From Tubiluchus corallicola (lineage: Eukaryota > Animalia > Priapulida): 64,000 nucleotides of DNA. The notes beneath the pieces are model-generated. The model had not been told where the DNA came from. It saw only the letters and a program-made list of their open reading frames with translations, and ran no database searches. The stretch is from NCBI GenBank assembly GCA_030141605.1, contig JAQGDQ010000682.1, positions 49,367-113,366 on the forward strand, written 5' to 3'. Of this stretch, positions 39,208-64,000 are shown piece after piece. The stretch's first letter is position 1; each line of letters starts with the position of its first letter. A program made the position numbers and the translations under genes.

Positions 39208-39255
<48 letters not shown>

Positions 39256-39340
39256 CATCATCATCATCATCGTCGTCTTCGTCGTCGTCTTCGTCGTCGT
39301 CGTCGTCATCATCATCATCATCATCATCATTATTAATAAT
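39160..39340. repeat. Compound trinucleotide microsatellite (TAT/TGT/CGT/CAT)
   Basis: Directly visible. Confidence 0.97.
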
Positions 39341-40722: not shown

Positions 40723-41380
40723 AGCACAAGAAAACCCTCCACTTACATAAAGCTTAAAAAATTCGTATCGAAATTTTTTATACCATTTACATACTACCTT
40801 TTTCGTGTAGGGCTTGCATCGTCCGTAACGCTGTACAAGACGTGTAGATTTAAACTCCCGCGATGACCGTTAGGCGCAGCCATTTTGATGGTAGGAACGT
40901 TTGAAACAAGTTTAGATAACACTGAATAAAATTTGAAAAAATAATCTGAGCATTCGCAGCATACATGTTTCTAACTAGGTAAAATGTTAAATTACAGTAT
41001 CTTATCAATAAGATTAAAAATATGTTTTTAGTTACCGAGTGGTGCACCCTGCAGGGTGAGCCAACGACATCTTAACAATTGGCACAAACGTTTTAAATTA
41101 TTATTTCCAGTTACATAAATCTTTCCAGCAGGTAAGCGAAATTCTAAATAATATTGATTTGCACGGAAAGTTTTTTGAGCCCTTGCTTCCTGTGATTTAC
41201 GTTTGCGTAGTGACGTCATGTAATGGCGCCGTCGGAACAGTATTGCGGGAGATTTAAAATGAAGACAAACAAAAACTTTTCTCAACGCGAGTGCGATATA
41301 TGCATAAAATTGCTGTAAAGTAATGTAATCTTTAAGGTGATTTTTCTGAAACCTAATTTAGGTAACCCTTTTCTGGTCCT
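40723..41380 (-). mobile_element. Kolobok-like MITE family C, copy 1
   Basis: TTAA|agcacaagaaaa ... ttttctggtcct|TTAA; inverted homolog at 63198-63746. Confidence 0.75.
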
Positions 41381-43534
41381 TTAAGGTGAGATTCATTATA
41401 ACGTAAGTGCAGTGCTTAGTTGATTGGCTGGATCTCACTGAGTTCTTTAATTGTTGTCGCTTATGCTCTTCATAATCACGGCTTCTATGGTAGATTGTCC
41501 AGACACTTTATCAAGTTGCATCTTGCCGCGATTCTCCTAATTCCTGTAGGTGTGAATGCAAGGCTGACTGCTGATATGAGGTCTAATTTCTACTGTCTAG
41601 ACTCATGTAGATTCATTAGGTGCAATTGTCAAGTTCAACTGAGCTCATTCATAACGCAACTCTATCGATCTGATTCATTTTCTCATAGAGAGTGTAAATT
41701 GAACGTTTCGTCTGCAGTAAACTGTACTCCTCAAACGAAGACATGATTATATTGGTGTAGAAATGTTTATGCATTTCATAGCAATTTATCTGCTGAGCAA
41801 AAAGCCTAATTTGCACAAGATTTAGGCACAAAATTGCTGTAAAGGAATTGCACATGATAACATCATCTATGAAAATGATGGTGACAGCGACAGAAAGGAC
41901 GACAGAACGAAGAGGAGAATGAATAGAAAGAGAAAGGTGGCGACCATGATAGCAACAATGACAACAATGAAGAAAAATCAACTACTAAACCAGCAAGTTT
42001 TCATTCAATTTTATGTTTTGTCTGTTGCCACTTATTTAAATTTTCAGGACTTCATGACCTTAAAATGTAATTACTTACTGACTGACTGATCGACTAACTG
42101 ACAGTGATTGGCTGGCTAAGTAACATGTTGACATTTTCTGCTTGACTTAGATATTGACTGCCTGATTCACCGACTGGCTGACAGCTTGACAGACTGATTA
42201 ACTGACTAATTCACTTATTTATGTAGGCCAGTGACTCATTGCCTGACTGGTTGATTCACTGTCATTGAACTCCAATTGCTTGCTGAATACAAAATACAAT
42301 TATTTAAGCTGTAACAGAATTCTTAGTTTAACTGTGTTTTCATTAAAGCCTAAAATCCTAAATTCTCTGTCACACAGACCGATTTTTTGCATTTTACCCT
42401 TTTACCATATGCATCCCAGTAAACCTTTTATATGACTTCTTCTAAATATGTTTTGTGCACAAAATACTTTCAGTTATTTATTTTAGGCGCATTGCCTCAC
42501 CACGACACAAAAGTGAAAATGCAATATGTCGATTTTTTAAAATTGTCGAAACTTTACTTCGCTTGTCTATACATTATACATTATTAATGTCTATACATTA
42601 ATTACTCCACCTAAAAGAAGAAAGTAGTAGACAATAAATTCAATATAACAATGATTTTTGCACACGCGCTAGCAATGGCGGTTGTCTGCAGTTATTCCAT
42701 GATAGGATAAGGGAACGTAACTAAGTGAATTTAAATTTCGTATTACCAGTAAGTAACACGTCTTTAAGCAGGGTATACTGTATCCTATGGTGGTCAGCAT
42801 AACCACAAATTATGCTGTTGCTGTTTACTAATGAAACACGGCGGTTTATCAAAAGTAATTTACGAATTTATGGTGGGGGTAATTTTTTATCGTTACCAAA
42901 CTCGGTTGTAAAAAATCGTGACCCTATAAGGGTTAAAGTGATTCTATTAATTACACGAGGTGCATATCACACTTTTATTACTAAATCCTTCTAACATTTT
43001 TCACAAACATTGAAATAAACTTAACTTCTCAAAAGGCTTAGCCTCTCCATTAGGCTCTAATGACATTTTTGAAAGCTGCATTATGTTAATAGGCAGTTTT
43101 AACAAGCAGCAATCATCGCTTAATGATATTGATAATGATAATGAAGTAGCAAATGAGTTACGAAGCACTTAATGTCGCCTGTCTTTGCTGGAATGAAGTT
43201 TTTAAGTAAGAAAACTTTAGACTTTTTTTAAAAATACAGTTACACGTAAGTGAAGTTTATTACTATTAGTTTTCATCTGGCTTCAATTAGAAGCACAGAA
43301 ATCAGCGCGAAAAATTAGGATAGTTACGCATCTTACTACTTAGATCAACATTTGTAACAATTTTAGACATTAATTTATTAATTATAATATTCGTTTCAAG
43401 ACACTTCTGTAGTCAATAAAAATTTTTAAATTTTACCGGGAAGAAAGAAATGCAAACACTTGGGCTGAGTTTATAGATTTGAATCAGAAACTTGTATTGT
43501 ATTACAAATATGACACCATCCTCATAAGGAGATT

Positions 43535-43600
43535 GTGCGTTTATTTGCAGTGTGCCGGACTTGTAATCCAAAAGTCCCTGGTTCAAATCCAGTCTTAATC
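43535..43600 (+). mobile_element. tRNA-like SINE head or tRNA pseudogene
   Basis: Anticodon arm ggacttgtaatcc and T arm ctggttcaaatccag; D arm and acceptor stem decayed. Confidence 0.5.
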
Positions 43601-43773
43601 CTGATTTTTTCACGTTTATTTCCTTTAGGTCAAGCTTCGTTTCCTTGTGGGGTTTATTCCCTATTAAAATATCTTTCTTTTATACGTTTTTAGGTTTGCC
43701 CTAAAAATCGAATACCCTGAATGTGGTAGAGGGCATATCCTGGCCAGTGTTGATAATTCTATAGATAGTTTAA

Positions 43774-44226
43774 CCCTTTCAGTCCCAAATTATTTATTTA
43801 ATAAAAAAATTTCGGCTCGGTACTTTTGTTCAGTATGTCCATCTTGTTTAGACATAATAATTTTTTTTCTACCTGTGCCCGTGTGCTAAATATAGCCTGT
43901 ATCCCACGGGATACATTGGGATTCAATGGAAGCATAAAATGTGCTTCATTTTGCAACTGCTGATAATTTTTAAAGTATTTAAGACATTTAGTATGCATGC
44001 TATACTGATCTGTACAAAGTCGTCTCTAAAGTACTGTAGCTTGCACAGTTTTTTATGCTATGTAGATTTTCTAGTTTGACATTTTATCACCATTTTTAGT
44101 CTATTGTTATTGGCTTAAATCAAAATAACTATTAACAGATCAAATAACTGTCAGTTTTAAAATTTTATTAATTTTAAAGGCAGAAAATATTCTCGTATCC
44201 CACGGGATGCAACGGGTATGAAAGGG
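43774..44226. mobile_element. piggyBac-type MITE
   Basis: TTAA|ccctttcagtccc ... gggtatgaaaggg|TTAA; internal repeat gtatcccacgggat twice. Confidence 0.88.
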
Positions 44227-44944
44227 TTAAGATAGATAAAAACATGCTTGGTAAAGAGAAAGATGATAAAGAGTTAGAAGGTACATGGAAATAACGAGCT
44301 TAATGAATCTAACTAGATAACAGTATCATTACCTGCGTACTTATAACCGTTTCGTTGTAAGAATAACCTTTAGAAAATTCTTTGTCTTTACAGTTTAATT
44401 TTCTGGAAAACGCTTCAATAACTGGCTTCTTAGAGAATTTTCCCTATTTTCCTCGTGAGCTCTCTAAAACGTGAAACCTGTCTGTTTTATTGCGTGAGAT
44501 GAGCTTTGTCAACAGAAGAACTAGGATTTTGATTAATCGTTTCTGTGGCTTTTATCTTATTAAAAAGACTGCAGTTTTCTACTGTGAGATCAAAGCAATG
44601 CAAATTCATGAAAATGAAAGTTTTGCTGTAAGTGCAGGACATTATGGCTACTTAAGTAGGACCAGACAAATGTAAATGATAACATTCCCGAGAGGAAAGG
44701 CATAGTTATTAAATGCTAGCTCGTGGCCATTTTAAAAATAATTAATTTTATTCTGATCAGAAGAAGTGTGAAAAAATTTGAAATCGGGGTATAAGTTGTG
44801 CAACACACGAAAGAACAAACCATGAAAATAAACGAAACGACGTGTCACAATGTGATAAGCTCATTTTAAAATGTGATAGCAACACAATAAAACATATCAC
44901 ATCACATCACAGATATCACATCACTTTAATGATAAGGCAAAATC

Positions 44945-45254
44945 GTCGTCGTTTCGGTGCTGCTACGTTCTAAGAAAACATGGCACATCCCACCTGTTGA
45001 TGCCACACATTCCTATCCACTGCCTCCGTCCACGATCCGTCAAATCTAGAGCTGTGTTTGCTGAATCTTTTTGTTATAAATCTATATAGGTCAGTAGCTG
45101 ATCCCTTCTCGGCTTTTTGTCGTTCCAAGAGCTTTACGTAATGCTGTAGGAAGAGGAGACTCTTGAGGTAATCTTAGTGTATGCCTAATCCAATGCAATC
45201 TTCTTACTTGGATTTGTTTACTCCAAGAATTCTTCTTCACCACGTCATACAGAT

Positions 45255-45303
<49 letters not shown>

Positions 45304-45500
45304 GTCGTCGTCGTCGTCGTTGTCGTCATCATCATCATTATCATCATCATCATAGGAAGAGGAGATTCTTGAGGTAATCTTAGTGTATGCGTAATCCAGT
45401 GCAATCTTCTTACTTGGATTTGTTTACTCCAAGAATTCTTCTTGACCACGTCGTACAGATCATCAATTAACATTCTGTCAGGTCATTTAATATCGAATAG
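44945..45500 (-). mobile_element. RTE-clade LINE 3' remnant with internal duplication around a (CAT/CGT)n microsatellite
   Basis: Reverse complement of ~38130-38450; ~115-bp direct repeats at ~45147-45260 and ~45353-45465. Confidence 0.75.
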
Positions 45501-45975
45501 TATTTTTTATCTTATATGGCAACGTAAAATAAGCCGACTGTGACGTAGGCCGACACCATGGCAAGCTTTAACATGACGTAATGTCACGTGATATCTGCTC
45601 TTGTTGTTTTCCAATTAACGTCGAGCATATTGGTCTATCGGTTCCGCTTCCGCTGTGACGTCAGCTCACCCAGAGGCATTCGGGACAACAGAACATGTTG
45701 GATATCAACTGTCTTTAGTAAACAACTTACAACTAGTGTCTAATCAACAGATAAACTGTTTGTACTTTTGTCATACACAAAAATTTACAAAGCAGCAGTT
45801 ATTTTTACACGAAATTAACACTTCAAGTAGCCAAAAAATGACTTCAATTTAAACAGAATGTAGAGACGAAGTTTCAAAGCACTACTAAATACAGAACGTA
45901 AGTGTAGTAAAGAAACTAAGCAAATTAGCCTTGCTTTACAATAAATGAACAACAAAAACATTAAGTCTCTCTTGC

Positions 45976-46175
45976 CTTTGAACATACGAACATCATTCTT
46001 ACTTGCGATGTATTTTTTCTATATTTAGCTGATCATGTGCTCGTCTGCAAGATTCATCTACTTTTCCCACTTGTTAGGCTACAGAAGTGGAATTAATTTG
46101 ATTAGTTCCATTCCACAGACGACCGTTATATCGACTGCCCGAGTTACATAAGTCCCGATGGCATCTTTCAACCAT
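45976..46175 (-). pseudogene. Decayed THAP zinc-finger exon, probably transposon-derived
   Basis: MVERCHRDLCNSGSRY..[shift]IKLIPLL*P..[shift]CRRAHDQLNIEK..FVCSK, then gcaag: a C-x4-C...P...C-R-R...VCSK(HF) THAP pattern with stops and frameshifts. Confidence 0.6.
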
Positions 46176-47924
46176 GATTATAACCAGAAAAATAGCGTAA
46201 AATTAACTAATATACAATGTTAATTGTGACCACATTTGAATTAATTTGGTTCGTAAAGATGATCTCATTTAGATTTATAAAAACTGGCCAGAAAATAAAA
46301 CATTTTGCCTAAATATTTGGTTTTACAACTTGTGCAAACCTACTTAGAGGTGCCCCAGACTGTAATTTTCACACGCAGGTTAACCTTGAATCATTTATGC
46401 CTGCAAAAGCTCGACCTTCAGTGACCTGAAGTTATGAATTTGTTCTTATATCTGTTCAGGTAGCTTTTTGACGTTTGCGGACATTAAAACAGCGTCATAT
46501 GATCGACCTAACTCGTTTTGTTAATTTGTCATTTTTAAAGTTAATCATCGAGTTGTTTTTCTCCAACTTGCAGAGTCATAAAGTACTAAACTGCGTATTT
46601 TGTATTGCAGTGATGCAAACTTTACTTCTGTAATTAGACGTCATTGGCGTAGTTTGTTATATCATTAATTGTTATTTGTGTTATTGTTGTGTGTCATGAT
46701 TTATTGTATTATTTGTATTAATTTGTAATGTGTATATGAACTTTGTAAAGTTTGAAACAAAATATTAAATCCAAAAAAATCTAAAAAAATATTTTCTTGT
46801 TAGTAAAACAGTTTGGTCAGCAACTAACAGACGTAAGCGTTGTGCATTTCTTCCCATAATAAACGAAACTGGACTGTATATTTCCATTAATTCACTTGAA
46901 ATTTCAATCGACAACAAAATCTAGAATTACGCTTATTTCTCCCGCTAACTAATGAAAAATTGAGCATTTTTCATAACAGTATTAGATGCCTGGCCATAGG
47001 CAGCTGCAGCTAAATGATGTGAAATCACCGGCGTTAAGTAAGCTCTGCAGGGGTGTGAAAAACCTTGCACGCTGATTGGGCAGTCAACGAGAATGATTGA
47101 CATTATGTTTGACGTCAATTGTTGGTTTTTCTGTTACTGCGATGGGTTACCGACGTCTTTAATTACAAACCACGTAATGAAAATCAGTTTCTTGATTGGC
47201 TTTTGAGAGATTGATTCTTCCTGAGGCCGCATTTTTGTCTGATTAATTCTTCAGTTTATTAGCGTTTTTTTCATGTAAATCAAAATATTAATTCTTGCCG
47301 ATAGCTTAAAACTATAAATGTGTTTGTTTGCTCTTGATATATGGGATTGTAATGTGATTAGACTGAAGGTTTTTGTATTTAAAAGAAGTTCTCGAAAAGC
47401 ATATTATTAGAAATTAGTATTTTGTTGATCTTTACTGTAGTTCCTAGCTAAAGATAAGATAAAAGCAAAGAACGTTTGATTAAAACATCATAATGCAAAT
47501 TCATGTTACAAGGTCAGACTGTTACGATGTCAGACGTACACGTGTATTGAATGGCAGTAATAATATAATGTAAAGTTTGGGCGTCACATCACATTGATTT
47601 TACGATAATAATTGTTTGTATCTATTTAATTTGTGCACAGTTACGTGCATGGAAAAACCTGTTCCTGGCATTTTACGTACCAGGTTTTCCCCAGGGATCT
47701 ATTTCCTGCCTACGCTTTTATAGTATCATAACTGTATTTAGGCGGTTATGTAGTTAATAAACGGGTGAAAGCAGCGATTCACTTGACTTTAATGTTATTC
47801 ATTATACAATTAAGCTGCAGAAGACTACGCTTTTACTATATATTTATTTATATTTATATTTATTTATATATAAATATTTATTATATATATTTATATAGAT
47901 TTATTCTACAGTAATTTGTTTTAT

Positions 47925-47984
47925 GTATATATATATATATATATATATAATAGACATACACACACTAACACACACACACACACA

Positions 47985-48041
<57 letters not shown>

Positions 48042-48194
48042 ACACACACACTTCCGATAGGAAAATAATTTTCTGCCAAGGAATTGTACAGATAAGAAGC
48101 CAGTGGGAAGATACTACCCCATTTTCAAATACGATTAAAAGTATACATTTTAACACAATTAATGCTGCAAAAGCGTTTCTGGCAATAAACAATC

Positions 48195-48225
<31 letters not shown>

Positions 48226-48320
48226 TGTATGTATGTATGTATGTATGTATGTATGTATGTATGTATGTATGTATGTATGTATGTATGTATGTATGTATGT
48301 ATGTATGTATGTATGTATAT
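47925..48320. repeat. (AT)n, (CA)n/(CACG)n and (ATGT)n microsatellites flanking a family-B fragment (48057-48190)
   Basis: Directly visible. Confidence 0.95.
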
Positions 48321-49299
48321 ACAATAATTGTTCTACGTTTCCGACAGTTCTTATAAAGATTCGTCAGAGAGCCACTAATCTTGCTTTATAGGGGTAAGTA
48401 ATTATGGATCCAAGTTGATCACAATCAGTTTTACTGTCCTAATTCACAGTCCACTGAAATGTGGCACATAAAGGGACATTATTAAATCAATAGCAATCTA
48501 TTAGTCATGGTCGATATCTGGTATTAAACATTTGACACGTCACATGTCTATGCGAGCTGTAGTTACATTACATACAGTTTAATAGTTAGTTGATAAGCAA
48601 AGCGCGCGAGGCTGATGAGTTTTGATAGGGCGTGAAAAAATGTGTATTTCAATTCAATTTCAATTTATTTATCTCTTTAAAGTGTTACAATAAAACATAA
48701 TTAATAAAAGAATCTCTAATAAATTTTGAAAAATGGTTAAAATATAAGATCTAGAACTAGAGAAAGGATAGCGAAAAGACTATAAAGTCACCTAGTCTGC
48801 TATCGTTTATGTTTTCGGTTAACAATCGACTTTACCATTTTAGGTGCTACTCGAATTATTTTCTCGCGTTTACGAGATAAAATTATCTCGTATCAAATTA
48901 ATTTTTTTATTTACCTGTTAATCGTTACCTGATTCACCTTTTGTCAATTGGCTTCTTTAGCTTTTTGGAGTTGCACGAACGTTGCCTTTTGAATTTTTTT
49001 TGCTTTAACCCAGTTTTAATATTGCCATATTTTTACCATTCATTTATATGTTCAAAAATCCGAAATATTCAAAACGTAAAATAAGCACCAACAATTTTAA
49101 ATTGCTCTAAACTCAATCAAGACTCAATTAAATTTTAGTAAGGTTCATAAGTTTACTATTATGTTTTTTGTCAAGGTTATTATAATTTCTTTTAAGACGT
49201 AGTCCAAGGATAACTCCTTAAATAATTCGATGTTTATTTCAAAGGTGGTCCCGATTATTGTATGATAAAACCATGAGAACCAGCGATACAATCTGGTAA

Positions 49300-49372
49300 G
49301 ACTACGTCGGGAGTTGAACCCTTAACCTCCCGTTTAGGATGAAAGCACGCTATCACTGAGCTTATACCACCC
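49300..49372 (-). mobile_element. tRNA-like SINE head
   Basis: Minus strand: ggtataagctcagtgatagcgtg...gggttcaactcccga (A and B boxes); imperfect cloverleaf. Confidence 0.5.
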
Positions 49373-50229
49373 GGAATAAAATGTAATTATTTATGCTTTG
49401 CTGTTAGAATTTGGTATTTTAAATTTGTCCACTGCCCTGAGTTTCCGTAGCAGTAACGGTTAAACTTCAATAGCAAATAGTTATACACGAGGGCTACAGT
49501 AATGTTTATGATTATAACAAGTCAATGCTTCCAGTTTATATTTATGAATGTAGCTTAAGATTATGTTTAGATAGTTTACGATAATTCATGTACTTTATTA
49601 GCTTCATTTTTTATCACAAACTCGTCTAGATAAAGTAATACCAAGCTGCCTTTTTATTTGTCGAATTGCTCGACAGATGGCGCAGGGCAGTTAGCTTTTG
49701 ATTCTGCCCAGCCAGCCAGTACATTCTCGCGAAGTTTTCAGCTTTCGCATGTTGGACAGGATTTCATAATTATTTTTAAGAAGTGGTGCTGACAAGCCAC
49801 TGGCGTAGCAGTGTCTAGTTTTTTTGGTGGATTACTGCTGCGTTTACCTGTCTGAAGGCAGATTTCTTTTATTTTAGAATTCTGCCTGCCCAATGTCTAC
49901 AATGTGATGGGCGTATGATGATAATGAATTATTTTTAACTGTAGTTATACATTATATATTATATTATACATTATATACATCATGATAAAAAACTTATTAT
50001 TTTCCTTAAATTAATGCTTATAAAAATTTTAAGTGCATTGAAAATGGAAGTTAATAAGTTAGTTTTTAACATCTATTAACTGAGTACAAACAGTTATGGT
50101 TGTCAAACTGTATCCTTAATGTTAAACCAGGCTAACAGAAAACATATAAAAAACAGGATATTTTTGTTTACGAATCTTGTAATAACTACGTAATATACCA
50201 GAACTTAAAGCAAAACCGGACCCAATCTT

Positions 50230-50800
50230 AAGCTGTAGGTCAAAACTTTGGAACACATTTTTTCAAAAATGACTTGCGTGAAAGAATGATTACCACACAA
50301 ACACAATTTCACGTTCGAGCCACTAGTTCTTCGCCGTTACATGCATTCCGTCATTCGCTAGTTAGACGGGCACTAGCGCCTGCATTTCGGAAACGCGTTT
50401 TGCACAAACAGGTATTGCACCTCTCAGTTCAGATGTGTTACTTTGTGACGCACTTTGCACGTTCGACAGTTCACGCGTGAGCACAGCGGTAAATTTGAAA
50501 TTGGAATTTTTATCTTAAAACTTGCCTAGTTTTAGTACAACACACTGAATACCTTACAGTAGCACTGTACTTCAATTTTTATTTTCACAGACACGTACAA
50601 TACGCTCGTAGAATATTTTTCCTGTTGAAAATTATGTTAGTTTGTGATGTCATCAGTAGTTGGGCTCGCACGCCGTTAATTAATATTTTAATCTATTATT
50701 TATTTATCAGAAACGCGTTTGCAGTATTAATTGTGTCAAAATGGATACTTTGATCGTACTTGGAAATGCGGTAGTGTATGAAAAATCATCCTGTCTTCCT
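50230..50800 (+). mobile_element. Kolobok-like MITE family B, left arm of an inverted pair
   Basis: Ends atcctgtcttcct|TTAA; reverse complement of 51178-51782. Confidence 0.75.
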
Positions 50801-51177
50801 TTAAGTTTAATTTCACCTGATTTGTGGTGACGATTATTTCCTTCACCGTTCTTTCTTAGACGACCAAAAAAATTATTGGCTATTTGAAGGACTCACAGGA
50901 GCGAGAGTCAAATTTGAAATATGAATGTACAGAGAATTAAAACCGTGTAACAATATTTCAGTGTTGGAAGAATCTGTTGGTGTTTTTCTTCAATCAAGCG
51001 AGATTTTAGTGTTCGGGGAAATAATTTTCTGCCAAGGAATTGTATAGATAAGAAGCCCGTGGGAAAATTGAAGTAAAAACAGTCAAGAAGCAGCAGAAAA
51101 TGAGTTTTTCAGCTAGCGAGGGTTGCTCCCGAGAGCATCTTTTGTAGAAGCTGTTTCCTAGTTAATGGCATGTTTAA

Positions 51178-51782
51178 AGGAAGACAGGATAATTTTTCAT
51201 ATACTACCCCAATTTTTAAATACGATTAAAATACGATCAAATACGCTTACATTTTAACACAATTAATCCTGCAAAAGCGTTTCTGGTAATTAAATTATAG
51301 ACTAAAATCTTAAGCCCAATAAGCCCAACTATTTATGATATCACAAACTAACATAATTTTCGACAGCAAAAATATTCTACGAGCGTGTTGCACGTGTATG
51401 CAAAAGCGAAAATTGAAGTACAGTGCTATTGTAAGATATTCTGCATGTTGTACAAAAACCAGGTGAGTTTTAAGATAAAAATTCACATTTCAAATTTACC
51501 ACTGTGCTCATGCTTGAGCTGTCGAACGTGTGTAGTTCGTCACGAACGAACACTTCTGAACTGAGAGGTTCAGCACTTGTTTTATGAGCAATGCGTTTCC
51601 GAAATGCAGGTGCTAGTGCCCGTCTAACTAGCGAATGGCGAAATACATGTAACAGCGAACAACTAGTGGCGCGAACACGGAACTGGGTTTGTCTGGTAAT
51701 AATTCTTTCACGTAAGTGGTTTTTGAAAGACTAGTATTCCTTTCAATATTTTAAAAAGTAGATTGTTTTGACCCACAGTTTA
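51178..51782 (-). mobile_element. Kolobok-like MITE family B, right arm of an inverted pair
   Basis: TTAA|aggaagacaggat...; shares e.g. gctagttagacgggcactagc with the left arm in opposite orientation. Confidence 0.75.
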
Positions 51783-52316
51783 AGACAGACTTGATTCGTA
51801 CTGTGAACCTGTTCACTATTGAATACGATTAATTTTACGGGAAAGCGTTAATCTGCATTATGTGACCTGCATTGCAGATGAATAGAATATCCCTATACAA
51901 ATATTAACTGCTTTAATTGCCCGCGTGCCACGTTACACAGTACACATTTACTGCAATAGAATACGACCGTTATAGACAGTTTTATATACGACTGATATAT
52001 TAATATCAGCTGCAGCATCGCCGAGGTACCAAGACGATGTTTGTGCGTGCAGTCAGCTTCCCTCAGGAACGGATGCTGAATTGACGATGTTAATTGCTTG
52101 TTCATTAGATGTTGGCGAAGTTAATCAGCTGGCTTAGCTAGACTGTGCACACTAAATTGAACGTTTATTCTACACTGTATGGCAAAAATTCTAAACTAAG
52201 GAAGGTTTACTCCTCTACACATGGCCGTGGGGTCACTTGACCTCCTCCGCCCTCTAGCCGTTGACTGCTTGTGCAGTTCCTCCGCCTAGTGTCGAGATAC
52301 AGTGTGGGCATCCCGC

Positions 52317-52436
52317 AAGCCTACAGCACCTGGTATTCCTAGGCGTTCACCCATCCAAGTACTAACCAGGCTCTACGTTGCTTAACTTCGGTGATCACAC
52401 GAGAACCGGTGTTTTCAACGTGATTTGGCCGTACTT
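52317..52436 (-). rRNA. Dispersed 5S rRNA copy (likely pseudogene or SINE3 head)
   Basis: tacggccaaatcacgttgaaaacaccggttctcg..gatcaccgaagttaagcaacg..ggttagtacttggatgggtga..gaataccaggtgctgtaggctt matches metazoan 5S; first 3 nt do not pair with the 3' end and no oligo-T terminator follows. Confidence 0.9.
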
Positions 52437-53313
52437 CTATTATATACTGCCTATTATATCACATTGACTGTTGTATTTATTTGCGAAACTTTGATGAATT
52501 GTACTTCCTAGACATACTAGTAACAGCAGTAACAGCGACAACGACAACGACAACGACAACGACAAGAACAGGCTACGCAATCAGAACCTAATTATACATT
52601 TTCACTAGAAGCTGATGCTGTTTGATGTTAAGCGTTCTTGTGCTAAACGACTTAGCTTTGTGTTTGTGCCACTGAGGACTAGAGTAATTTACTTGAACAA
52701 AGTCAAGTTTTCTTTTGATCAGCAGTTTAGCTCTTATATTGATGATTAACCCGTAAATGTTCAAGACGGGATTATTAGCTGCCCATATTAAACAATAGGC
52801 CTATTTATAATTGTGTACAAGCCAAAGCAAAATGAATGAGAGAGAAAGTCGCAAAACTTTGCCTGTGTCCAACACAGGAACTCAAATTTTTATCCTCTAA
52901 ATGGAATTTGGAAATTTTAATGTTGATCACAGGGTCTAATGCAGGAGATAATTGAGTCTACTGAGCTATGTCAAGTTGCTGATAATTTCCTGAAATTTTG
53001 TAATGTTTTAGTGTTAGGTGAAAGTGGTAGTATACATACATACAAGATCTGACAAGTCTGTACGTAATTTGTGCAAAAATTGTAAATAGTCTGCACTGAA
53101 TGCAGGAGAGTATTTAACTGAGATCAGTTTATCTTCGCCAGGAAGTGGGTTGCTAGAAATCTGATTTCTTACCTGTTAAATTCTTTACACTTGTTTCCTG
53201 CAAAGTAATACAGAGTAGTACGACTATTCACTTACTTATTCCAATGCAGTATACGGTAATTTACTTGTTTACCACAGTGTACAGTAGTTCACTTACTTAC
53301 TGGAAAAGATTAT

Positions 53314-53380
53314 GGTAGGGTTAGGGTTATGGGTTTGGGTTAGGGATGTGGGTTAGGGTTAGGGTTGAGATTTTGGGTTA
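53314..53380 (+). repeat. Degenerate interstitial (TTAGGG)n-like tract
   Basis: ggtagggttagggttatgggtttgggttaggg..ggttagggttagggtt. Confidence 0.85.
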
Positions 53381-53383
53381 GAT

Positions 53384-54160
53384 ATGTGCAGTAATTCACT
53401 TCCTTGCTGCTAAACAATGTGCAGTAATTCACTTCCTTGCTGCTAAACAATGTGCAGTAATTCACTTCCATGCTGCTAAACAATGAGCAGTAATTCAGTT
53501 GCTTGCTGTTAAACAATGAGCAGTAATTCACTTGCTTGCTGCTAAACAATGAGCAGTAATTCAGTTGCTTGCTGTTAAACAATGAGCAGTAATTCACTTG
53601 CTTGCTGCTAAACAATGAGCAGTAATTCACTTGCTTGCTGCTAAACAATGAGTAGTAATTCACTTGCTTGCTGCTAAACAATGTGCAGTAATTCACTTCC
53701 TTGCTGCTAAACAATGTGCAGTAATTCACTTCCTTGCTGCTAAACAATGTGCAGTAATTCACTTCCTTGCTTCTAAACAATGTGCAGTAATTCACTTGCT
53801 TGCTGCTAAACAATGTGCAGTAATTCACTTGCTTGGTGCTAAACAATGTGCAGTAATTCACTTGCTTGCTGCTAAACAATGTGCAGTAATTCACTTGCTT
53901 GCTTCTAAACAATTTGCAGTAATTCACTTGCTTGCTGCTAAACAACGAGCAGTAATGCACTTCCTTGCTGCTAAACAATGTGCAGTAATTCACTTCCTTG
54001 CTGCTAAACAATGAACAGTAATGCATTTTCTTGCTTCTAAACAATGAGCAGTGATTCACTTGCTTGCTGCTAAACAATGTGCAGTAATTCACTTCCTTGC
54101 TGCTAAACAACGAGCAGTAATGCACTTTCTTGCTTCTAAACAATGTGCAGTAATTTGCTT
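53384..54160. repeat. Minisatellite, 33-bp unit (tgtgcagtaattcacttgcttgctgctaaacaa), ~23-24 copies
   Basis: Directly visible. Confidence 0.97.
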
Positions 54161-54391
54161 GATCAGTTGCAAAGCAATTTACAGTAATTCACTTGATTAC
54201 AGCAACATTTTTCAGCTGCTTGATTTATTTTTCTTTTTCATATGTAATTTATCTTGATTAATTTTAATCACACAACATTTAATTTTACAAAAATATTTAT
54301 ATTTTTAAGTGGATATTTGCCAGCTTTGTTACTGTCCATAGTTTTCACGGATAAACTAAAGAAACGGCTTCATTAAACACAAACATCAGCG

Positions 54392-54531
54392 TCAGCGTTT
54401 GCGACTGCGACTACTTCTCCGTGTGGATCTGGAACGTCTCCGTTTTTGAGACTTGCTTCTTGATGCCCTTCTGCCCTGGCTGGACCTCCCACGCCCGCTG
54501 CGGCTTCTCTTTCGACGATTATATCGGGAAA
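54392..54531 (-). CDS. Terminal coding exon of a predicted 58-aa protamine-like Arg/Ser-rich protein
   Basis: Acceptor ttttgttttgatttcttag| at 54532; phase-1 frame (L)SRYNRRKRSRSGRGRSSQGRRASRSKSQKRRRSRSTRRSSRSRKR*; GC-rich against AT-rich flanks; AATAAA on the minus strand at ~54229-54224. Confidence 0.8.
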
Positions 54532-54572
54532 CTAAGAAATCAAAACAAAAAAAATCAGCAATAATTGGAAAG

Positions 54573-54725
54573 GCACGTTCAGACCGGAGACCCTTTTCTT
54601 GTGAGTTCTCCGTGCGCTTTGCTGAATGTCAGAACTGTCAGCAACTCTCGGAGAGTTGAACTCGCAAAGTCGTTCACACCTGCGAGTTTGCTCTCAGTGT
54701 GAAAACTCTTTAGTGTGAACGTACC
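54573..54725. mobile_element. PIF/Harbinger-like MITE
   Basis: TIR ggcacgttcagac / gtgtgaacgtacc; related to 36-228. Confidence 0.55.
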
Positions 54726-55927
54726 ATAAGCCACGAGACTTATTTCCTGAATATCAGTTAATGAATGAAAGATTATTACAATAACAAGGATATTTTGCCG
54801 CTTTTATTTATTTTACCAAACTGAATTTCAATTTTACACCAGAACACAAGACACGCCTTACAAAAGTACAAACCAGCCATGAGATAAAATAGAAACATAG
54901 AAACAGGAACATGTACAATTGTAATTGTACGTAGTTATAATTATCACATTAGTAGGTGTAGCAAAGTTTAACAAAGCTAGTTAACTTCATTTTGCGTTCA
55001 CGCGCTGCACTGTACTCTTTGTATAAAACTAATCATTAGCTTAATTTTGTAATTAAATTATAATGAATGCATTGAAGTAGAAAAACAGGCGTAGTTAATC
55101 ATTTGTAGAAGAATGCTGCAAACACGAGGACAGGAAGTGACGTCACACGTTTACACTTAGCTACAAAATCTTTTCATCTTCAATTTTTCATTGGTTACAC
55201 TGATGACGTATCGTATTGTTAACGTGTATTTTGGATTTTTAATGTGACTCCTTCCCTATTTGTATCGCATTAATTTACGGTTTAGTAAAATTTAATAAAT
55301 GTAATATATATGCTGGTTTGGGTGTATATTTCGGACTGAAACCATGCGGTCTTGAGTTCGAGTCTAACCGCTGCCAACACCAAGGCTTGTACCCTACATG
55401 TTATTCGTTATTTGTGTGTCGCGCCCCCCTACCTCTATAACCGTTAGTGCTAATGTCGTCTCTTAGAATGAGCCACGGTGTCTTTGTCTTCTGACCTTCC
55501 CTTTCGCACGAAATAAAGATTGAAAAAAATGATCCAAATCTATGAGTATGTTACACTTGACTATGCCTGTTAAAGTGCGTTTAACTCACAAAAAACCAAC
55601 GACAACAATACGAAATCACCGTATGATTTCTCGTAGGTCCATGCTCACAACGGACAAAACCACGAAAGAAACATTTAATTTTGAATAAAGAACATTTATT
55701 TTAATATCTGATCCTGCCGCCATTCACAGCTAATGGTGATGTGGTTCATTATTGTCAAAAACCTTGTTGATTTTTGAATTTTAATTTTTGTCGATAAGCT
55801 TTATGACAATTAAAAAGTTGACTATAATATCGCAAACTCGGAAAAAATATTAAAACACATTTATAATTATATCTATTCGTGATAAGTTTTAAGTGAAGCC
55901 GGTGAATGAATCAGAATGTATAATTAA

Positions 55928-56470
55928 AGGAAAACCGGATGATTGTGTAAACGTTAGTTCAGAATAAAGAATGCTCTAAAATATTGAAAACTACAATGGC
56001 TTTTTCTAAATCAAGCTTAGATTAAATAATAATTACCTCGGACACTCAAATTTTGTTAAACTTTCAAAGCTACACGCGGCTGTATGAATCTACTAAGATT
56101 TGCAGCGGCGCCTTTTTGTCACGTGCGCGTGATCGACAAATAGAAGGCGGTATCGTGATAACCATGATCATGAACTGCAGTGTTAGTTTCTGACGTCATT
56201 TGATGTAAAGCCCATTTTCGTGACACCATGCGTTTAAACAGTACTGTAACACTTATGCAAATGTGCTTGATGCGCAAGGGAAGACGCCTGCCATTCCATA
56301 AACTGTGGTTAGTTTCTGACGTAAGCAATAGCTGTGTTCCTTTGCCGTTAATTAACTTTCTAAGCTAATTATTCAAGTATAAGGAACAATTGTTATTATA
56401 GGCAAGAAAATGTATATTTAGGACAGTAAATTAAAATGAGATGGAGTCTAAACAATCGTCCGGTCTTCCT
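55928..56470 (-). mobile_element. Kolobok-like MITE family A, copy 4 (complete)
   Basis: TTAA|aggaaaaccggatgattg ... caatcgtccggtcttcct|TTAA: 18-bp TIR with 2 mismatches and TTAA TSD. Confidence 0.88.
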
Positions 56471-56634
56471 TTAAATCTTATGAATTGTAAATAGTTTTCT
56501 GGGATGAAATGTTGCTGTTAATAAGTTGTCATCATTATTTGTATTGCCACCTTCGTTGGTTTTGTTCTTTTTCTAAAATGTTTGTAATTGTTTTGCATTT
56601 CTTCCATTCAAAAATATGAAATAACAAAACTTAC

Positions 56635-56671
56635 GTAATTTTTTCACTTCCTCTCTGCTTAAGATCGGCAT
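56635..56671 (-). CDS. First coding exon of the predicted protamine-like gene (MPILSREEVKKL + 1 nt)
   Basis: agcATG at 56671; donor C|GTAAGT at 56634; phase 1 matches the exon at 54531; acceptor-like cctttcag 9 nt before the ATG. Confidence 0.75.
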
Positions 56672-56788
56672 GCTGCTCAGCTGAAAGGAGGAATGATCAG
56701 AACAATCCGTCACACGAATAGATCCAGACGGACAAGGGTGTTCGTTTCTCAGAACAACAGCATTAATACCAAAAACAAAACAACAGTT

Positions 56789-56855
56789 GTTGCTACGGTA
56801 ACAAAAAGTTACGAGTGGCTCGACGAATAAGTTGTTTACGTCACCTATGACGTCA
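56789..56855. promoter_or_regulatory. RFX X-box plus two CRE sites upstream of the protamine-like gene
   Basis: GTTGCTACGGTAAC (56789-56802), TTACGTCA (56836-56843) and TGACGTCA (56848-56855), 120-185 bp upstream of the ATG. Confidence 0.6.
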
Positions 56856-57487
56856 CCTACTGTGTGAGTTAATAATTTTTTTAGGGCCGTACTGAAGGAA
56901 GTAATTTGATTTGATTCGATTTAACTTTTTATTTCAAGCCAAAGGTTCATAGCATAAAATATTTAATTTTCGGCAACAAGAAACTAAAACGCATACATTA
57001 ACATATTTAATTAATTAACACAAGATATATATATAAAACTAGTAGCAATAGTGCGATTTCATTTTTGATTTAATTTCGAATCAAATTCATATTTAAACAC
57101 AAATTAAAAAATACATGCACCACAATTACACGCTCTCGGCAACATTACATACTACGTACACATAAAATTAAAAAATTAATTATCCAACCATGCTTAGCAC
57201 CAGAATATGCTGAATTATAATTTTTATTATAATAAGATCCTCCACTGTTTTCTAATTTCAGAAGTGTAAGCCACTTCATTTTCTGTTAAATATTGTTAGG
57301 TGCATGTCAGATTAAATTTCAGTTAAGGAATTTGTACTACGCATTACTCTTAGGAGGGAGGAGGGAGAGAAAGAGAGATTCGATTTGATTTAATTCTTAC
57401 AACATACAACATCATAAAAACAAAAAACCAATACAAACAAATCACAAACTTAGATAAACATGAAAATTTTTATGTTTTTATGTTTTA

Positions 57488-57681
<194 letters not shown>

Positions 57682-58034
57682 AGTTCAATGACGAACAACT
57701 ATTACCGCAACGGTCTACATTGTTTTTAAAATGGTTTTCCTGTGTTTTGGTTTTATTTTAACCCAAAATATTGCAATGTGTTTTTTGGTAGATTGTACGA
57801 AGCCGAGTTGTGTCATATACTCTACTGCTAGAGTAGACCTCTCATTATCTCTTGCTCAACTCTGCTGCTAAACGCCCCACTATGCCGCACGCTAACACAG
57901 TGTGCAGATAACAGGTGCTGGAGACTGTTTCAACAAAGTACGTTATGGTTATTATAATGCTTGAATGAACCCAATTTTGTTGAATTTTGAAACCAAACTT
58001 GACTGAAAGAAAGGTGATAATGAAAGTCGAGAGA

Positions 58035-58095
58035 GAACCTGAATTTCAACCAGAACCTTTCGTTTGCAAGGCGAATGCGATGACCACTTGATCAG
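58035..58095 (-). mobile_element. tRNA-like (TGC anticodon) SINE head or pseudogene
   Basis: Minus strand: caagtggtcatcgcattcgccttgcaaacgaaaggttctggttgaaattcagg. Confidence 0.4.
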
Positions 58096-59704
58096 TCTTT
58101 ATTTGCTATCCTAACTCAAACCTTGTATACAACTAATACTAGAATAATTAGCTAACTACCTAAATTATTTTTTTCTTTGTAATTACTTCAGAGGGTGTAA
58201 TAATGCTTACGTAACTAATTATTCCATTTCACTGTCGCGTTATCATATTTTGCTTTAAGGTATGCTATTATTTTTAAATTCACCTGCAAGTTTACAGACA
58301 TTTTGCCAAGTTTTTGCTCAGTAAATCACCGTTTCACTATTTTATAGCAACAGTTCTCAGTTTCCCACAAGAAATCTTGAGCGTGATTTATGCCGGCTTC
58401 CTAACACGGGGTTACATTTCTCTCTGCTAGAATTTCTCGACAAGCATAACTGCTTTTTGATTCGGGATTAAGCAGTGAAACTGTTCGGTTATGCCGTCAC
58501 TAGCCGCTGCTTAATGGAGGAAAGAAACCGCGTCGCGCATTTATGAGTGCAAGACATGAAATGTATGACGTCAGAGGAAATCTACATGTAAAAGCTAAAG
58601 CTGCTTTGATTTCTCTTTAAGTAGCGTGGCGCGGGGGTAGAGCTTTTGTTTAATAATGACTGCCACAGCAATGCCTTTACAGGTTTCTGTAGCGTAGTTC
58701 CTTCATAGGGGAATAATAAACAGGAGGAGAAGAAGGAGGGAGAAAAAAAGCAGTTTATTCTGCGATTTTTTTTTGTAATATAATTTCGTTATAAATTGAA
58801 ACTGCTATACGTTTTTGAAATGCATCGTTTTAAAATGGAAAATTTTGTTTCTACGTGTAAGAATTTTGTTGAATCTTAGCATCAACTGAACTAAACTTCA
58901 AATGCCGTACGTTAGTAGTTTGACCGGTGGCGACTACGATTCTGCTTTAATTAGTAAGCATCCGCAATAGTGCAGTAAAAATGAATTTCCAGAGTTTATC
59001 GGTGCTGCCCTGTTGTGGATATCCGCTAGAATCAAATAGAATATTGTAGAATGTTCTATAGTATAGCAGAGCAATCTTCTTACCTTGTAGAAGTTTCGAA
59101 AACTTTCTATTTCTTTATTGTTCCCTGGCACTGATATATAAGGCAGAGCTGGCCGCTGAAGTTTATTCTCTCGTATTCTCTTGTATCCTCGTATTCTCAG
59201 ATTCGCTTTCACGCTTTCACGTTTCCAGATTATCACATTTACTGTATACATTTCGCGTTCCTTCATACTTTTGTGTTGTAGAATTCTCGTATAATAAACT
59301 AGTTTAATTTGACGATGTGTTTTCTGGTTTTCTCTACGAGCCTTCCGAGAGAAACAAGACACAACATGCCCCCTTGGTCTATGCCCAGACTAGCAAACTT
59401 TTTAAAAACCGTTTAAAATGTCTAAATCTCAATAATTATTTATCTTTTAATAGACACCTGTAAGTAGCTTTGTGTTTTTATCCGTGATTTTTTAACTAGG
59501 CCTCTTATCTGTAATTTTTTTTCTATTCTGTATATACAGTTTATTCGGCTTTTACATTTTATACTTTCTTGTAAATATTTTCATTTTAAATAAAGATTAT
59601 GTGTTAAATAAATAAATAAATAAAGTAAAAAAGTGGGTGAACGGGATGGCTCTATGGCTCCAAACTGCTCAAATCATCACGTTTGATGCTATAAACACAG
59701 TTAA

Positions 59705-60278
59705 TGTTTGAGCGATGCGTCTTAATGCTCTTACTAAAGTAATTATTTGCCTCCACGAAGTCATCTGGCACTCTATGAAGTGAATGTTTAGTAAGGGAAA
59801 GTTGCATCTTAGTTCCTAATGATCATATTAAGATCACAACATGTTCCAAGGTATTCTGTGTCACCATCGTAACAACGCATGTAAAAACCTGCAATTGTGG
59901 TGTATACTACTTACAGAAGAGAGGTTTGTAGTTCTTGATAAAATAGATGATTGGCTAATATTAAACCATTATTAGGAGCGATTAATGAGCTGCGCTTAAG
60001 AGAATAATCTGTCACTTGACATCTCTGAAACCTTGTGCTACATACACATCTAATTGTGTAAATTTAATAGATTTCTATGAAACGTTATTAGCTAGTTCAG
60101 TGATCTCTCACAAGTTTTTTAAATTTAACTTTGTATATAGTTTATGCATTTTTTAATTTTCTTAATGTAAGTAATGTAAATTATATCCAATGTAAACTGA
60201 TGTATTTTAACCTTGGCATGTAGGTTGGCCTAAGATCTAACATAGCCTACTAGTCTCATCTTTTATAAAATTGTGTAA

Positions 60279-60313
<35 letters not shown>

Positions 60314-60338
60314 ATGAATGAATGAATGAATGAATGAA

Positions 60339-60410
<72 letters not shown>

Positions 60411-60667
60411 AAATTATAAACAAAAATAGGATTGTCTACTGCAGCTGCTTTAACTACACCCACGCTTGAACTTTTTATGATTCTTTTCTAATTAAGAGAC
60501 TAAAAACTTTTGTTCATTAAAGTCATCTCGAGGCGTTTCAATCTTAATACGATCATTAGGAACTAAGATGCAACTGTTTTTTACTAAACATTCATTTCGT
60601 GGAGTGCCAGATGACTTCTTGGAGGCAAATAATTACTTTAAGAACATTAAGACGCATCCCTCAAACA
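59705..60667. mobile_element. Non-autonomous element with ~130-bp TIRs, TGT...ACA ends and 5-bp TSD (Ginger-like)
   Basis: GTTAA|tgtttgagcgatgcgtcttaatg ... cattaagacgcatccctcaaaca|GTTAA; arms 59705-59834 and 60541-60667. Confidence 0.7.
60277..60410. repeat. (TAAA)n/(TGAA)n microsatellite
   Basis: Directly visible. Confidence 0.97.
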
Positions 60668-60865
60668 GTTAATACCCGCGTGCTATCATTAATAAAAAAC
60701 ACCGTCAAAAAATTTATTGTCAGTTTTCTAATTTTGCCTGGGGTTTTGAAAGTGATGATTTACGACCTCCGTTTCTTCACTAATTTCCTGTTTGATAAAA
60801 CACGCGTATTTATTATCCCCAAGTCTTTTGTTAAGTTTTATCGTTAATGCTGTAATTGTTGGTTG

Positions 60866-62492
60866 AAGCCTCCTCTTAAATTGAAGTTTACTAATCTCAA
60901 CTAGCACTAGTTTGATCTACGTTGAAAGCTGTGCTAAGCTTTCCTCTCAAGTTGAAGTTTACTAGTCTCAACTAGCACGAGTTTGATCTACGTTGAAAGC
61001 TGTGCTAAGCTTTCCTCTCAAGTTGAAGTTTACTAATCTCAACTAGCACTAGTTTGATCTACGTTGAAAGCTGTGCTAAGCTTTCCTCTCAAGTTGAAGT
61101 TTACTAATCTCAACTAGCACTAGTTTGATCTACGTTGAAAGCTGTGCTAAGCTTTCCTCTCAAGTTGAAGTTTACTAGTCTCAACTAGCACGAGTTTGAT
61201 CTACGTTGAAAGTTGTGCTAAGCTTTCCTCTCAAGTTGAAGTTTACTAGGCTCAGCTAGTTTGATCTGCGCTAAAACTTGTGCTAAACTCTCCTCTCAAG
61301 TTGAAGTTTACTAGGTTCAGCTAGTTTGATCTACGTTGAAAGCTGTGTTAAGCTTTCCTCTCAAATTGAAGTTTACTAGGCTCAGCTAGTTTGATCTACG
61401 CTAAAAGTTGTGCTAAACTCTCCTCTCAAGTTAAAGTTTACTAGGCTCAGCTAGTTTGATTTACACTAAAAGTTGTGCTAAGCTCTCCTCTCAAATTGAA
61501 GTTTACTAGGCACAGCTAGTTTGATTTACGCTAAAAGTTGTGCTAAGCTTTCCTCTCAAATTGAAGTTTTACTAGGCTCAGCTAGTTTGATCTGCGCTAA
61601 AAGCTGTGCTAAGCTCTCCTCTCAAGTTGAAGTTTACTAGGCACAGCTAGTTTGATTTACGCTAAAAGTTGTGCTAAGCTTTCCTCTCAAATTGAAGTTT
61701 ACTAGGCACAGCTAGTTTGATTTACACTAAAAGTTGTGCTAAGCTCTCCTCTCAAATTGAAGTTTACTAGGCACAGCTAGTTTGATTTACGCTAAAAACT
61801 GTGCTAAGCTTTCCTCTCAAATTGAAGTTTACTAGGCACAGCTAGTTTGATTTACGCTAAAAGTTGTGCTAAGCTTTCCTCTCAAATTGAAGTTTACTAG
61901 GCACAGCTAGTTTGATTTACGCTAAAAGTTGTGCTAAGCTCTCCTCTCAAATTGAAGTTTACTAGGCACAGCTAGTTTGATTTACGCTAAAAACTGTGCC
62001 AAGCTTTCCTCTCAAATTGAAGTTTACTAGGCTCAGCTAGTTTGATTTACACTAAAAGTTGTGCTAAGCTCTCCTCTCAAATTGAAGTTTACTAGGCACA
62101 GCTAGTTTGATTTACGCTAAAAGTTGTGCTAAGCTCTCCTCTCAAATTGAAGTTTACTAGGCTCATCTAGTTTGATTTACACTAAAAGTTGTGCTAAGCT
62201 TTCCTCTCAAATTGAAGTTTGCTAGGCACAGCTAGTTTGATTTACGCTAAAAGTTGTGCTAAGCTCTCCTCTCAAATTGAAGTTTACTAGGCTCAGCTAG
62301 TTTGATTTACGCTAAAAACTGTGCTAAGCTTTCCTCTCAAATTGAAGTTTTCTAGGCTCAGCTAGTTTGATCTGCGCTAAAAGCTGTGCTAAGCTTTCCT
62401 CTCAAATTGAAGTTTAATAGGCTCAGCTAGTTTGATCTGCGCTAAAAGCTGTGCTAAGCTCTCCTCTTAAATTAAAGTTTACTAGGCTCAGC
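60866..62492. repeat. Tandem repeat, ~5 units of 71 bp then ~20 units of 65 bp
   Basis: aagctttcctctcaaattgaagtttactaggcacagctagtttgatttacgctaaaagttgtgct. Confidence 0.97.
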
Positions 62493-63163
62493 AATGTCTT
62501 CAGTGAAATCTGTGCCGTGCGGATTAACAAAGTTAACTTGATTGCAAACGGAACAGCAGCAGAATTATACGATTTCGATTTCTGACTGACCGTGTTTAAT
62601 GGTGATGCGTTGAAAAGCGGTTCACGAAAAGTGGTTCATTCACTACGAATCCAAAAGTGGAATAAAGGAGATATAATTAGGTTTAAATGCTTTGTATTGT
62701 AAATCGTTTAATCGAGATGCAATGAAGAGCACAGCACTGCTTTATTACGTTTCGTGTACACTGTGCTGCGTTAGCTGAAACGCTAATTGTGTCACGTATA
62801 AATTTCAGAAAAACCAATATTGACAATCTTCCCTATAGCTCTACAGATCGGGAAACTTTAATTAATGCCGGCTACTAATGAATGAGCATCATTTGCAACT
62901 AATACCGCCATCTAACTAATGAACTAGTCGAATTTTTGAATTAACTATTTTGAATTATTACATACTCGAACTAACTAATCGCATATTTCATCTCTACACA
63001 TAGTGGAAATACTGTGAGCAGTAATAGTTACTGTGTTGTAAATCCTCTCAAAATGAATAAAATTTATATATATATATATGCATATATATAATATATATAT
63101 TAACATATATTATAATATATATAACATATATTATAATATAACATATATTATAATATATAACAT

Positions 63164-63195
<32 letters not shown>

Positions 63196-63197
63196 TA

Positions 63198-63746
63198 ATT
63201 TTTGTTTGCTTTCATTTTGAATCTCCCACAATACTTTTCCAACAGCGCCATTACATGACGTCACTAGGCAAACTTAATCAGGGGAAGAAAAGGAAATGTT
63301 AAATTATGTATCCATGCAAATCTATATTACTTAGCATTTCGCTTACCTACTGCACAGACTTACGTAACTAGAAATAATAATTTAAAATGTTTGTGCCAAT
63401 TGGTAAAATGTCGTTAACTCACCTCCAACGTGCGCCACTCACTAACCAAAAACGTATTTTTAATCTTATTAACAAAATACAGTAATTTAAAATTTTACTT
63501 AGCCACATGTATGTTAGGAATGCTCTGATTATTTTTCAAACTTTACTCAGTGTTATCTAAAGTTGTTGTTTCGACCTACCATCAAAATGGCTACGCCTAA
63601 CAGTCAGCGCGGGAATTTTAATTTACAGGTTTTATACAGCGTTGCTTCCGACGCAAACCCCGCATGCAAAAAGGCAGTCTGCAAGTGGTATAAAATTTCA
63701 AGACGAATATTTGAAGCTTTACGCAAGTGGAGAGTTTTCTTGTGCT
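63198..63746 (+). mobile_element. Kolobok-like MITE family C, copy 2 (left end lost next to an AT-rich tract)
   Basis: Reverse complement of ~40723-41280 (e.g. gcgccattacatgacgtcacta); ends gttttcttgtgct. Confidence 0.75.
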
Positions 63747-64000
63747 TTGACATTAAGTAATCAATATTAAGCCTTGGGGCTTTTAAGACGCTGTCGTAAA
63801 ACTGAAAGTAATTGTCATTCATTCATTCAAGACAGGCTTGCGCGAACTTCTTTTATTGAAAGATGAAAACGGGATTCTAATTTGCTGACATCCGCACCTC
63901 TTAAAGAGTTTACTGCTTTACAAAACCTGTGGTGAACCGTAATAAGTTCGTCCAGAGTGACAATTTTACCTTTGTTTACCTTCTGTATTCAAGAACAAGT

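Follow-up and report, generated by a model that had tools for sequence, protein, structure and literature searches.

A predicted small arginine- and serine-rich, putatively protamine-like protein in the priapulid Tubiluchus corallicola

Introduction

The locus considered here raises the question of whether two short open segments on the minus strand of a contig from the priapulid Tubiluchus corallicola encode a protamine-like protein that packs sperm DNA. They lie in a stretch of 64,000 nucleotides (GenBank assembly GCA_030141605.1, contig JAQGDQ010000682.1, positions 49,367 to 113,366), referred to below as the window, whose numbering is used throughout. A sequence-only reading of the window had described a hidden two-exon gene for a 58-residue protamine-like protein with a spermatid-type (RFX + CRE) promoter. 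Sperm nuclear basic proteins (SNBPs) have been characterised in sponges, cnidarians, annelids, molluscs, chordates and a few arthropods, and Priapulida is absent from those listed in the introduction to a 2024 overview (PMC11607694). In a search of the open-access literature we found no report of a priapulid protamine. It seems reasonable to regard the predicted gene as the first protamine-like candidate found for Priapulida. With a named candidate, one can ask by experiment if sperm DNA in an early-branching ecdysozoan is packed by a P- or PL-type protein, and also if such a priapulid protein descends from histone H1, and the candidate illustrates the micro-exon genes that are overlooked by annotation. 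The surprise is moderate, since this kind of protein is already well known.

The candidate gene and its predicted product

The elements of the coding frame are present in the sequence as they had been described. On the minus strand an ATG at 56671 opens 37 coding nucleotides (12 codons plus one base) that run to 56635, a GTAAGT donor starts at 56634 in phase 1, and an acceptor AG ending at 54532 leads into an exon (54531-54392) that continues in phase to a TGA (Table 1). A recount of the spliced frame gave the same length of 58 codons, of which 20 encode Arg, 14 Ser and 6 Lys, and the AATAAA that was said to follow the stop by about 165 nt was measured at 163 nt, although the poly(A) signal candidates are weak evidence because the region is AT-rich (20% GC). 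The Arg/Ser exon is indeed no microsatellite, with all six Arg codons and five of the six Ser codons in use and 128 distinct 8-mers out of 128. The candidate ATG has an A at -3, as do the ATGs of three neighbouring genes (4/4).

The predicted 58-residue product has a mass of 7.0 kDa, a net charge of +24, 34.5% Arg, 44.8 mol% Arg+Lys and 24% Ser, and its computed pI is 12.0, which is the calculator's ceiling. It consists of a near-neutral leader of 13 residues (net charge +1) and a tail of 45 residues without acidic residues, the terminal exon comprising 42% Arg, 29% Ser and 9% Lys with Asp and Glu absent. The eight RS dipeptides are scattered and the longest alternation is RSRS, the longest pure Arg run is three residues and the longest Arg/Lys run is four. 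The leader was considered as a notably amphipathic helix across the junction, an idea that was dropped as 25-28% of shuffles equalled it.

Table 1. Features of the candidate locus, in window coordinates.
Feature	Position	Strand	Basis
CRE palindrome, with a CRE half-site (56843-56839) 12 nt further on	56848..56855	-	sequence
RFX site (X-box) that agrees with the strict consensus at every position and ends 118 nt 5' of the ATG	56789..56802	-	sequence
Branch-point-like CTGAT, pyrimidine tract and CAG acceptor directly 5' of the ATG exon	56681..56702	-	simple score
46-nt exon: 9 nt, ATG, 12 codons plus one base, ending in phase 1	56635..56680	-	sequence
Predicted 2103-nt phase-1 GT-AG intron: GTAAGT donor, branch-point-like CTGAT at 54558, T-rich tract, TAG	54532..56634	-	splicing inferred
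551-bp MITE-like element: terminal inverted repeats of 29 nt, a TTAA at each end, AG...CT termini	55924..56474		in intron
Terminal coding exon, 140 nt: 45 full codons plus TGA	54392..54531	-	sequence, simulations
Poly(A) signal candidates: ATTAAA at 54283 and 54268, AATAAA at 54229	54224..54288	-	sequence, weak evidence

Coding signal and splice sites

The terminal exon stands out by its composition. Over 45 stop-free codons the count of R+K+S minus D+E is 36, compared with maxima of 17-20 in 30 windows simulated with a fourth-order Markov model, and the next-highest scores in the window, 28 and 23, come from microsatellite frames. When the exon's own dinucleotides were resampled 20,000 times the maximum was 30, so that a score of 36 was reached in 0/20,000. 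G occupies the second codon position in 29 of the 45 codons and the third positions are balanced. Outside the exon, in frame, only 8 of 33 codons before the acceptor and 7 of 33 after the stop encode R, K or S, and the bias thus begins at the acceptor and stops at the stop codon. The other open frame of exon 2 was tried as the coding one, as it has the top codon score among 228 control frames, and was rejected because its 58% GC explains that score and the R/K/S bias would be left unexplained. Read in phase 0 from the acceptor, this second frame (54373-54531, minus strand) has 52 open codons and is rich in Ala, Gly, Glu and Asp; a phase-0 upstream exon joined to exon 2 would yield an acidic product.

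By a simple scoring devised for the present analysis, the acceptor of the terminal exon, which has a branch-point-like CTGAT 24 nt upstream, ranks 3 among 3526 minus-strand AGs, and the GTAAGT donor at 56634 is moderate (rank 113/3702). A second strong acceptor, overlooked by the sequence-only reading, lies 9 nt 5' of the ATG (exon start 56680, rank 13/3526). The combination of acceptor, ATG and phase-1 GTRAGT donor occurs once in the window, with both strands scanned and 0.48 expected per simulated window; its chance expectation on one strand is about 0.01 per 2.5 kb under criteria that were set after the site had been seen, and about 0.2 per 2.5 kb for an ATG open to a phase-1 donor when the acceptor is not required. 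This sole in-phase ATG-plus-donor exon with an acceptor lies 2.1 kb upstream of the terminal exon. The acceptor of its own strengthens the case that the leader segment is an exon, bounded on both sides (56680-56635), and makes an earlier transcript exon probable. Hence the proposed count of two exons is probably wrong. The transcript probably has an exon upstream of the 46-nt exon, which may be non-coding or coding, and in the latter case the N-terminus may be longer than in the 58-residue model. That the exon 5' of 56680 may be non-coding is suggested by the neighbouring genes, since acceptor-like sites also lie shortly 5' of the ATGs of MAF1 (86 nt before, equally strong) and HACD (at -29, weaker).

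Several other readings of the splice sites and of the surrounding sequence were considered. Spliced-leader trans-splicing at the 56680 acceptor is unsupported, the literature matches concerning chaetognaths and a dinoflagellate as judged from titles and the beginnings of abstracts. An RNA gene was rejected, as no Rfam match reaches its gathering score in 53000-64000, and so were downstream partner exons, as none of the 93 minus-strand frames of at least 36 codons in 34800-54300 reaches the Pfam cut-off. Within the intron, at 55115-55150, a CRE abuts an ETS-like GGAAG core and is directly followed by a good minus-strand acceptor (exon start 55115, rank 24/3526), which if used in phase 1 would lead to a stop after five codons.

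The putative promoter region

The CRE and the X-box occur at the places reported for them. The X-box matches the strict consensus RTNRCC N1-3 RGYAAC (PMC2375033) and is the single such match within the window, where 1.7 are expected. The window holds 13 CRE octamers against 3.2 expected, five of them inside repeats with further copies in the window. A CRE within 100 nt of a strict X-box was found in 0/30 simulated windows, and because of the absence of this pairing from the simulations a regulatory region at the CRE/X-box stretch is plausible. The label of a spermatid-type promoter is weak, as CREs are common in the window and, in mouse, the genes that depend on RFX2 and those that depend on CREM scarcely overlap, the mRNAs for TNP1/2 not being lowered in Rfx2 mutants (PMC4498915). 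X-boxes mark ciliary genes in general, and in Drosophila a single X-box fails to predict RFX dependence (PMC2375033). The combination of CRE and X-box is no recognised spermatid signature, and the X-box points to ciliated cells generally. It should be noted that both CRE-like sites also read as weak splice donors (first intron base 56856 or 56844), the use of which would put the X-box inside a 5' intron of 164-176 nt. A derivation of the CRE/X-box stretch from the repeat family in the intron was rejected, with a score of 36 against a shuffle maximum of 45.

Homology searches

Each exon was used alone as a homology query, so that a relative that can only be found with leader and tail together could escape, and the low complexity of the tail blunts such searches. 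With exon 2, a protein search gave 18 candidates, none at E<=10, and a search of 1.84 billion representatives gave 0 matches at E<=0.001; there was no usable Atlas match and no Pfam or PDB match. The frame around exon 1 gave one candidate, not at E<=10, and PDB rows by chance only (E 1.8 and 2.9). The Pfam protamine models did not match the candidate exons, and no paralogues of these exons were found within the window. Among 61 upstream minus-strand frames of at least 30 codons, from which low-complexity frames had been removed before the scan, none reached the Pfam curated cut-off, and two rows had E values of 0.016-0.046. The linker-histone (winged-helix) Pfam model had no match in these frames or in the exons, in sequence to 64000 only, and no RRM was found upstream of the RS-rich exon within the window, i.e., up to 64000. 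One stretch in this upstream region, at 58937-59389 on the minus strand, has 151 stop-free codons and no Pfam match; a segment bounded by AG and GT (59341-59084) lies in it and has a good donor.

Coverage in sequencing runs

Among the sequencing runs listed as containing the stretch, none is on record as RNA, and two runs were compared with the locus. Run X1 spans the intron without splicing and resembles genomic DNA, and run X2 consists of 13 Mb of contigs whose RNA nature is a guess. None of the contig joints compared in the DNA-like X1 and in X2, which are all but 12 weaker ones, matches the predicted intron, and the junction is a prediction. The depth in X2 is confined to the transposon-like element of the intron and is zero over both exons, which counts neither for nor against the gene. 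In X1, a contig over exon 2 is identical to the window at a depth of 5.3, exon 2 and the distal intron being at 4.1-5.3, and a contig over 56622-56729, with exon 1, shows no difference from the window at a depth of 33.1. The adjoining intron contig has a depth of 27.9 with five substitutions and one insertion, and these two contigs differ in depth by about 5, which is also the single-copy depth nearby. At 56621 there is a bubble with depths of 17.6 and 6.3, the window allele being the minor one (6.3). The roughly 6-fold depth of exon 1 and the intron start (56476-56729) over exon 2 hints at about six copies of this segment, although copy number cannot be read from contig depth and some records are lost to filters, the promoter region 56730-56895 being without cover. 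The high-depth contig contains three GATC sites and exon 2, where the depth is not raised, contains one, and no variant of exon 2 at >=85% likeness was found in X1. The excess may come from paralogues whose tails have diverged, from partial duplications, from losses in filtering or from library bias.

Comparison with known basic proteins

Small PL proteins without a winged-helix domain are known; between the candidate and the PL-type SNBPs no sequence homology was detected, and the window has no winged-helix match. In composition the candidate is similar to the small mussel PL proteins and to Chaetopterus CvPL: its Arg+Lys content lies within the 35-50 mol% given for PL-type proteins (PMC12159748), its mass within the 6-40 kDa given for this type (PMC11607694), and it is, like them, Ser-rich and without Cys. 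It differs in that a predicted phase-1 intron interrupts the coding sequence and in that Ser alone accounts for 24% of residues, compared with about 14% Ser/Thr in mussel PL. With P-type precursor protamines (squid, honey bee P2, mammalian P2) the candidate shares a mass within the 3-10 kDa of P-type proteins (PMC11607694), a predicted pI of at least 12 and a low-charge N-terminal segment before the Arg-rich domain. However, P-type protamines have 50-80% Arg (50-60% in mammals and 65-70% in fish; PMC12159748), whereas the candidate has 34.5%, or 42% in exon 2, with Arg runs of three at most. The predicted protein thus resembles a PL- or P-type SNBP by composition and falls short of the P-type Arg content, and its membership of sperm chromatin is putative.

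The nearest ecdysozoan analogue outside arthropods is the small multi-copy family of basic sperm-chromatin proteins SPCH-1/2/3 of C. elegans, which are putative protamines (PMC4191889); the SPCH proteins have been shown in sperm, whereas the candidate is known from sequence. Baculovirus P6.9, with 40% Arg and 31% Ser+Thr, is close to exon 2 with its 42% Arg and 29% Ser, a likeness that is compositional only. Unlike P6.9, the candidate is a gene of host type, predicted to be spliced, among MAF1, HACD and an LRR gene, and there is no sign of viral origin. With SR and SR-related splicing proteins the candidate shares its eight RS dipeptides, but there is no RRM in the window and no long RS alternation, and on the contents of the window the candidate is no SR protein.

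A proposed mechanism and its alternatives

The locus is probably a real gene for a small basic protein. A small Arg/Ser-rich protein made from both coding exons is the best reading of the locus, as had been proposed, and its size and composition fit the P and PL types. We estimate a probability of about one half that the predicted 58-residue protein condenses sperm DNA as a protamine-like protein in the priapulid. Based on the features described above, we put forward a hypothetical mechanism in which the transcript would start further upstream and reach the ATG exon via a non-coding exon or a 5'-UTR intron, after which splicing of the 46-nt ATG exon to the Arg/Ser-rich terminal exon would give the predicted basic protein of 58 residues and 7 kDa. 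In the 45-residue tail the Arg and Lys residues would bind the DNA backbone, and the Ser residues, eight of which are in RS dipeptides, would be phosphorylated during deposition and dephosphorylated later; Ser phosphorylation accompanies deposition (PMC11607694). The near-neutral 13-residue leader may be trimmed or used in handling, and cleavage of a precursor at its N-terminal side is frequent among protamines of both vertebrates and invertebrates, the genes for which are usually unannotated (PMC12216123). RFX binding at the X-box could link expression to flagellated spermatocytes or spermatids, and this is the weakest step. According to the source on precursor cleavage, a protamine is not definable by composition alone, Arg-rich composition being common to unrelated proteins (PMC12216123). 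The depth of exon 1, some six times that of exon 2, also counts against the model, because a simple single-copy gene does not predict it. A stronger form of the proposal, which we regard as unlikely, is that of a protamine of the priapulids' own, unrelated to histone H1, with a small RFX-driven family that has an identical leader exon and fast-diverging Arg/Ser tails and that would have arisen independently at the base of Ecdysozoa.

Both exons could instead be the last exons of a longer protein, either SR-related or of PL type but larger and containing a folded domain, such that the ATG encodes an internal Met and earlier exons lie upstream, perhaps past 64000. We consider this somewhat unlikely. 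It would suit the strong acceptor 9 nt before the ATG, the 46-nt exon being open from phase 0, and the frame that stays open for 83 codons 5' of the ATG, a length equalled by 17 of 945 ATGs in a non-repeat control region, and there are good donors at 59083, 63346 and 63422 and an 86-codon AG-GT segment (59341-59084) that ends in phase 0. Against this, 0/61 of the upstream frames reach the Pfam cut-off, a 94-codon upstream frame gave no homologue and an 85-codon part of it scored like shuffled protein in the ESM Atlas (recognition 1240), and the frame at 58937-59389 has a codon score like that of non-coding sequence (-0.14 versus a median of -0.16). The RS dipeptides are scattered, with alternation never beyond RSRS, and in MAF1, too, a strong acceptor lies a short way 5' of the true ATG without upstream coding sequence.

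Two further alternatives accept the exons and differ from the protamine-like reading in what becomes of their product. It is quite unlikely, in our judgement, that the 58-residue protein is real and acts outside sperm as a small basic nucleic-acid binder of somatic or ciliated cells, such as an RS peptide of speckles or nucleoli or a condenser of somatic chromatin. X-boxes mark ciliary genes generally and an Arg-rich composition occurs in unrelated proteins, but conserved housekeeping RS or ribosomal proteins should give homologues, of which none were found in searches of poor sensitivity, and Arg, Lys and Ser make up about 80% of the tail, which has zero acidic residues, as in SNBPs. It is improbable that a small family arose by duplication and that the window holds a silent or partial member of it, with a coding signal that was inherited though this copy is not expressed, or with exon 1 duplicated without exon 2. 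Such a copy would be in keeping with the X1 depths of 33.1 over exon 1 and 27.9 over the variant intron start compared with 4.1-5.3 over exon 2, and with the window allele being the minor one (6.3 to 17.6) at the 56621 bubble. Yet the copy in the window has an intact frame and stop as well as intact splice sites and branch motif, contig depth does not measure copy number, filters remove some records, and a library bias connected with the three GATC sites is possible, though the GATC in exon 2 shows no rise.

Neighbouring genes and repeats

The MAF1 gene of the window indicates that the host is likely a priapulid other than Priapulus caudatus. Among the best 120 of 565 matches, its protein shares 84% identity with the MAF1 of P. 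caudatus and no more than 69% with any other, and in a tree of 24 of these 120 matches and the window protein it is sister to Priapulus with 100/100 support. MAF1 (3598-4353, minus strand), an LRR transmembrane-type protein (16658-17893, plus strand) and HACD/PTPLA (34041-34784, plus strand) each have their entire coding region in one open frame. MAF1 and HACD are usually multi-exon genes in animals, and their single frames may reflect intron loss or retroposition in the present priapulid.

The MITE-like element in the intron, which the sequence-only reading had overlooked, is of high copy number, with a summed contig depth of 8,600-46,000 in run X1. Its family, which we take to resemble Kolobok-type elements, has copies at 33198-33715 (88%), 4796-5330 (70%) and 27806-28250 (73%) and pieces near 50636-51782, and carries three of the 13 CRE octamers in the window. 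A tandem array with a unit of about 65 bp at ~60870-62500 gives five weak Rfam twister-P3 matches (22-24 bits with a gathering score of 39.9, E 0.34-0.89), probably by chance. A minisatellite array at 53340-54188 begins about 40 nt past the AATAAA of the candidate gene and gives long repetitive open frames, as do further minisatellite arrays at 14412-15485, 24360-26902 and 30258-32217.
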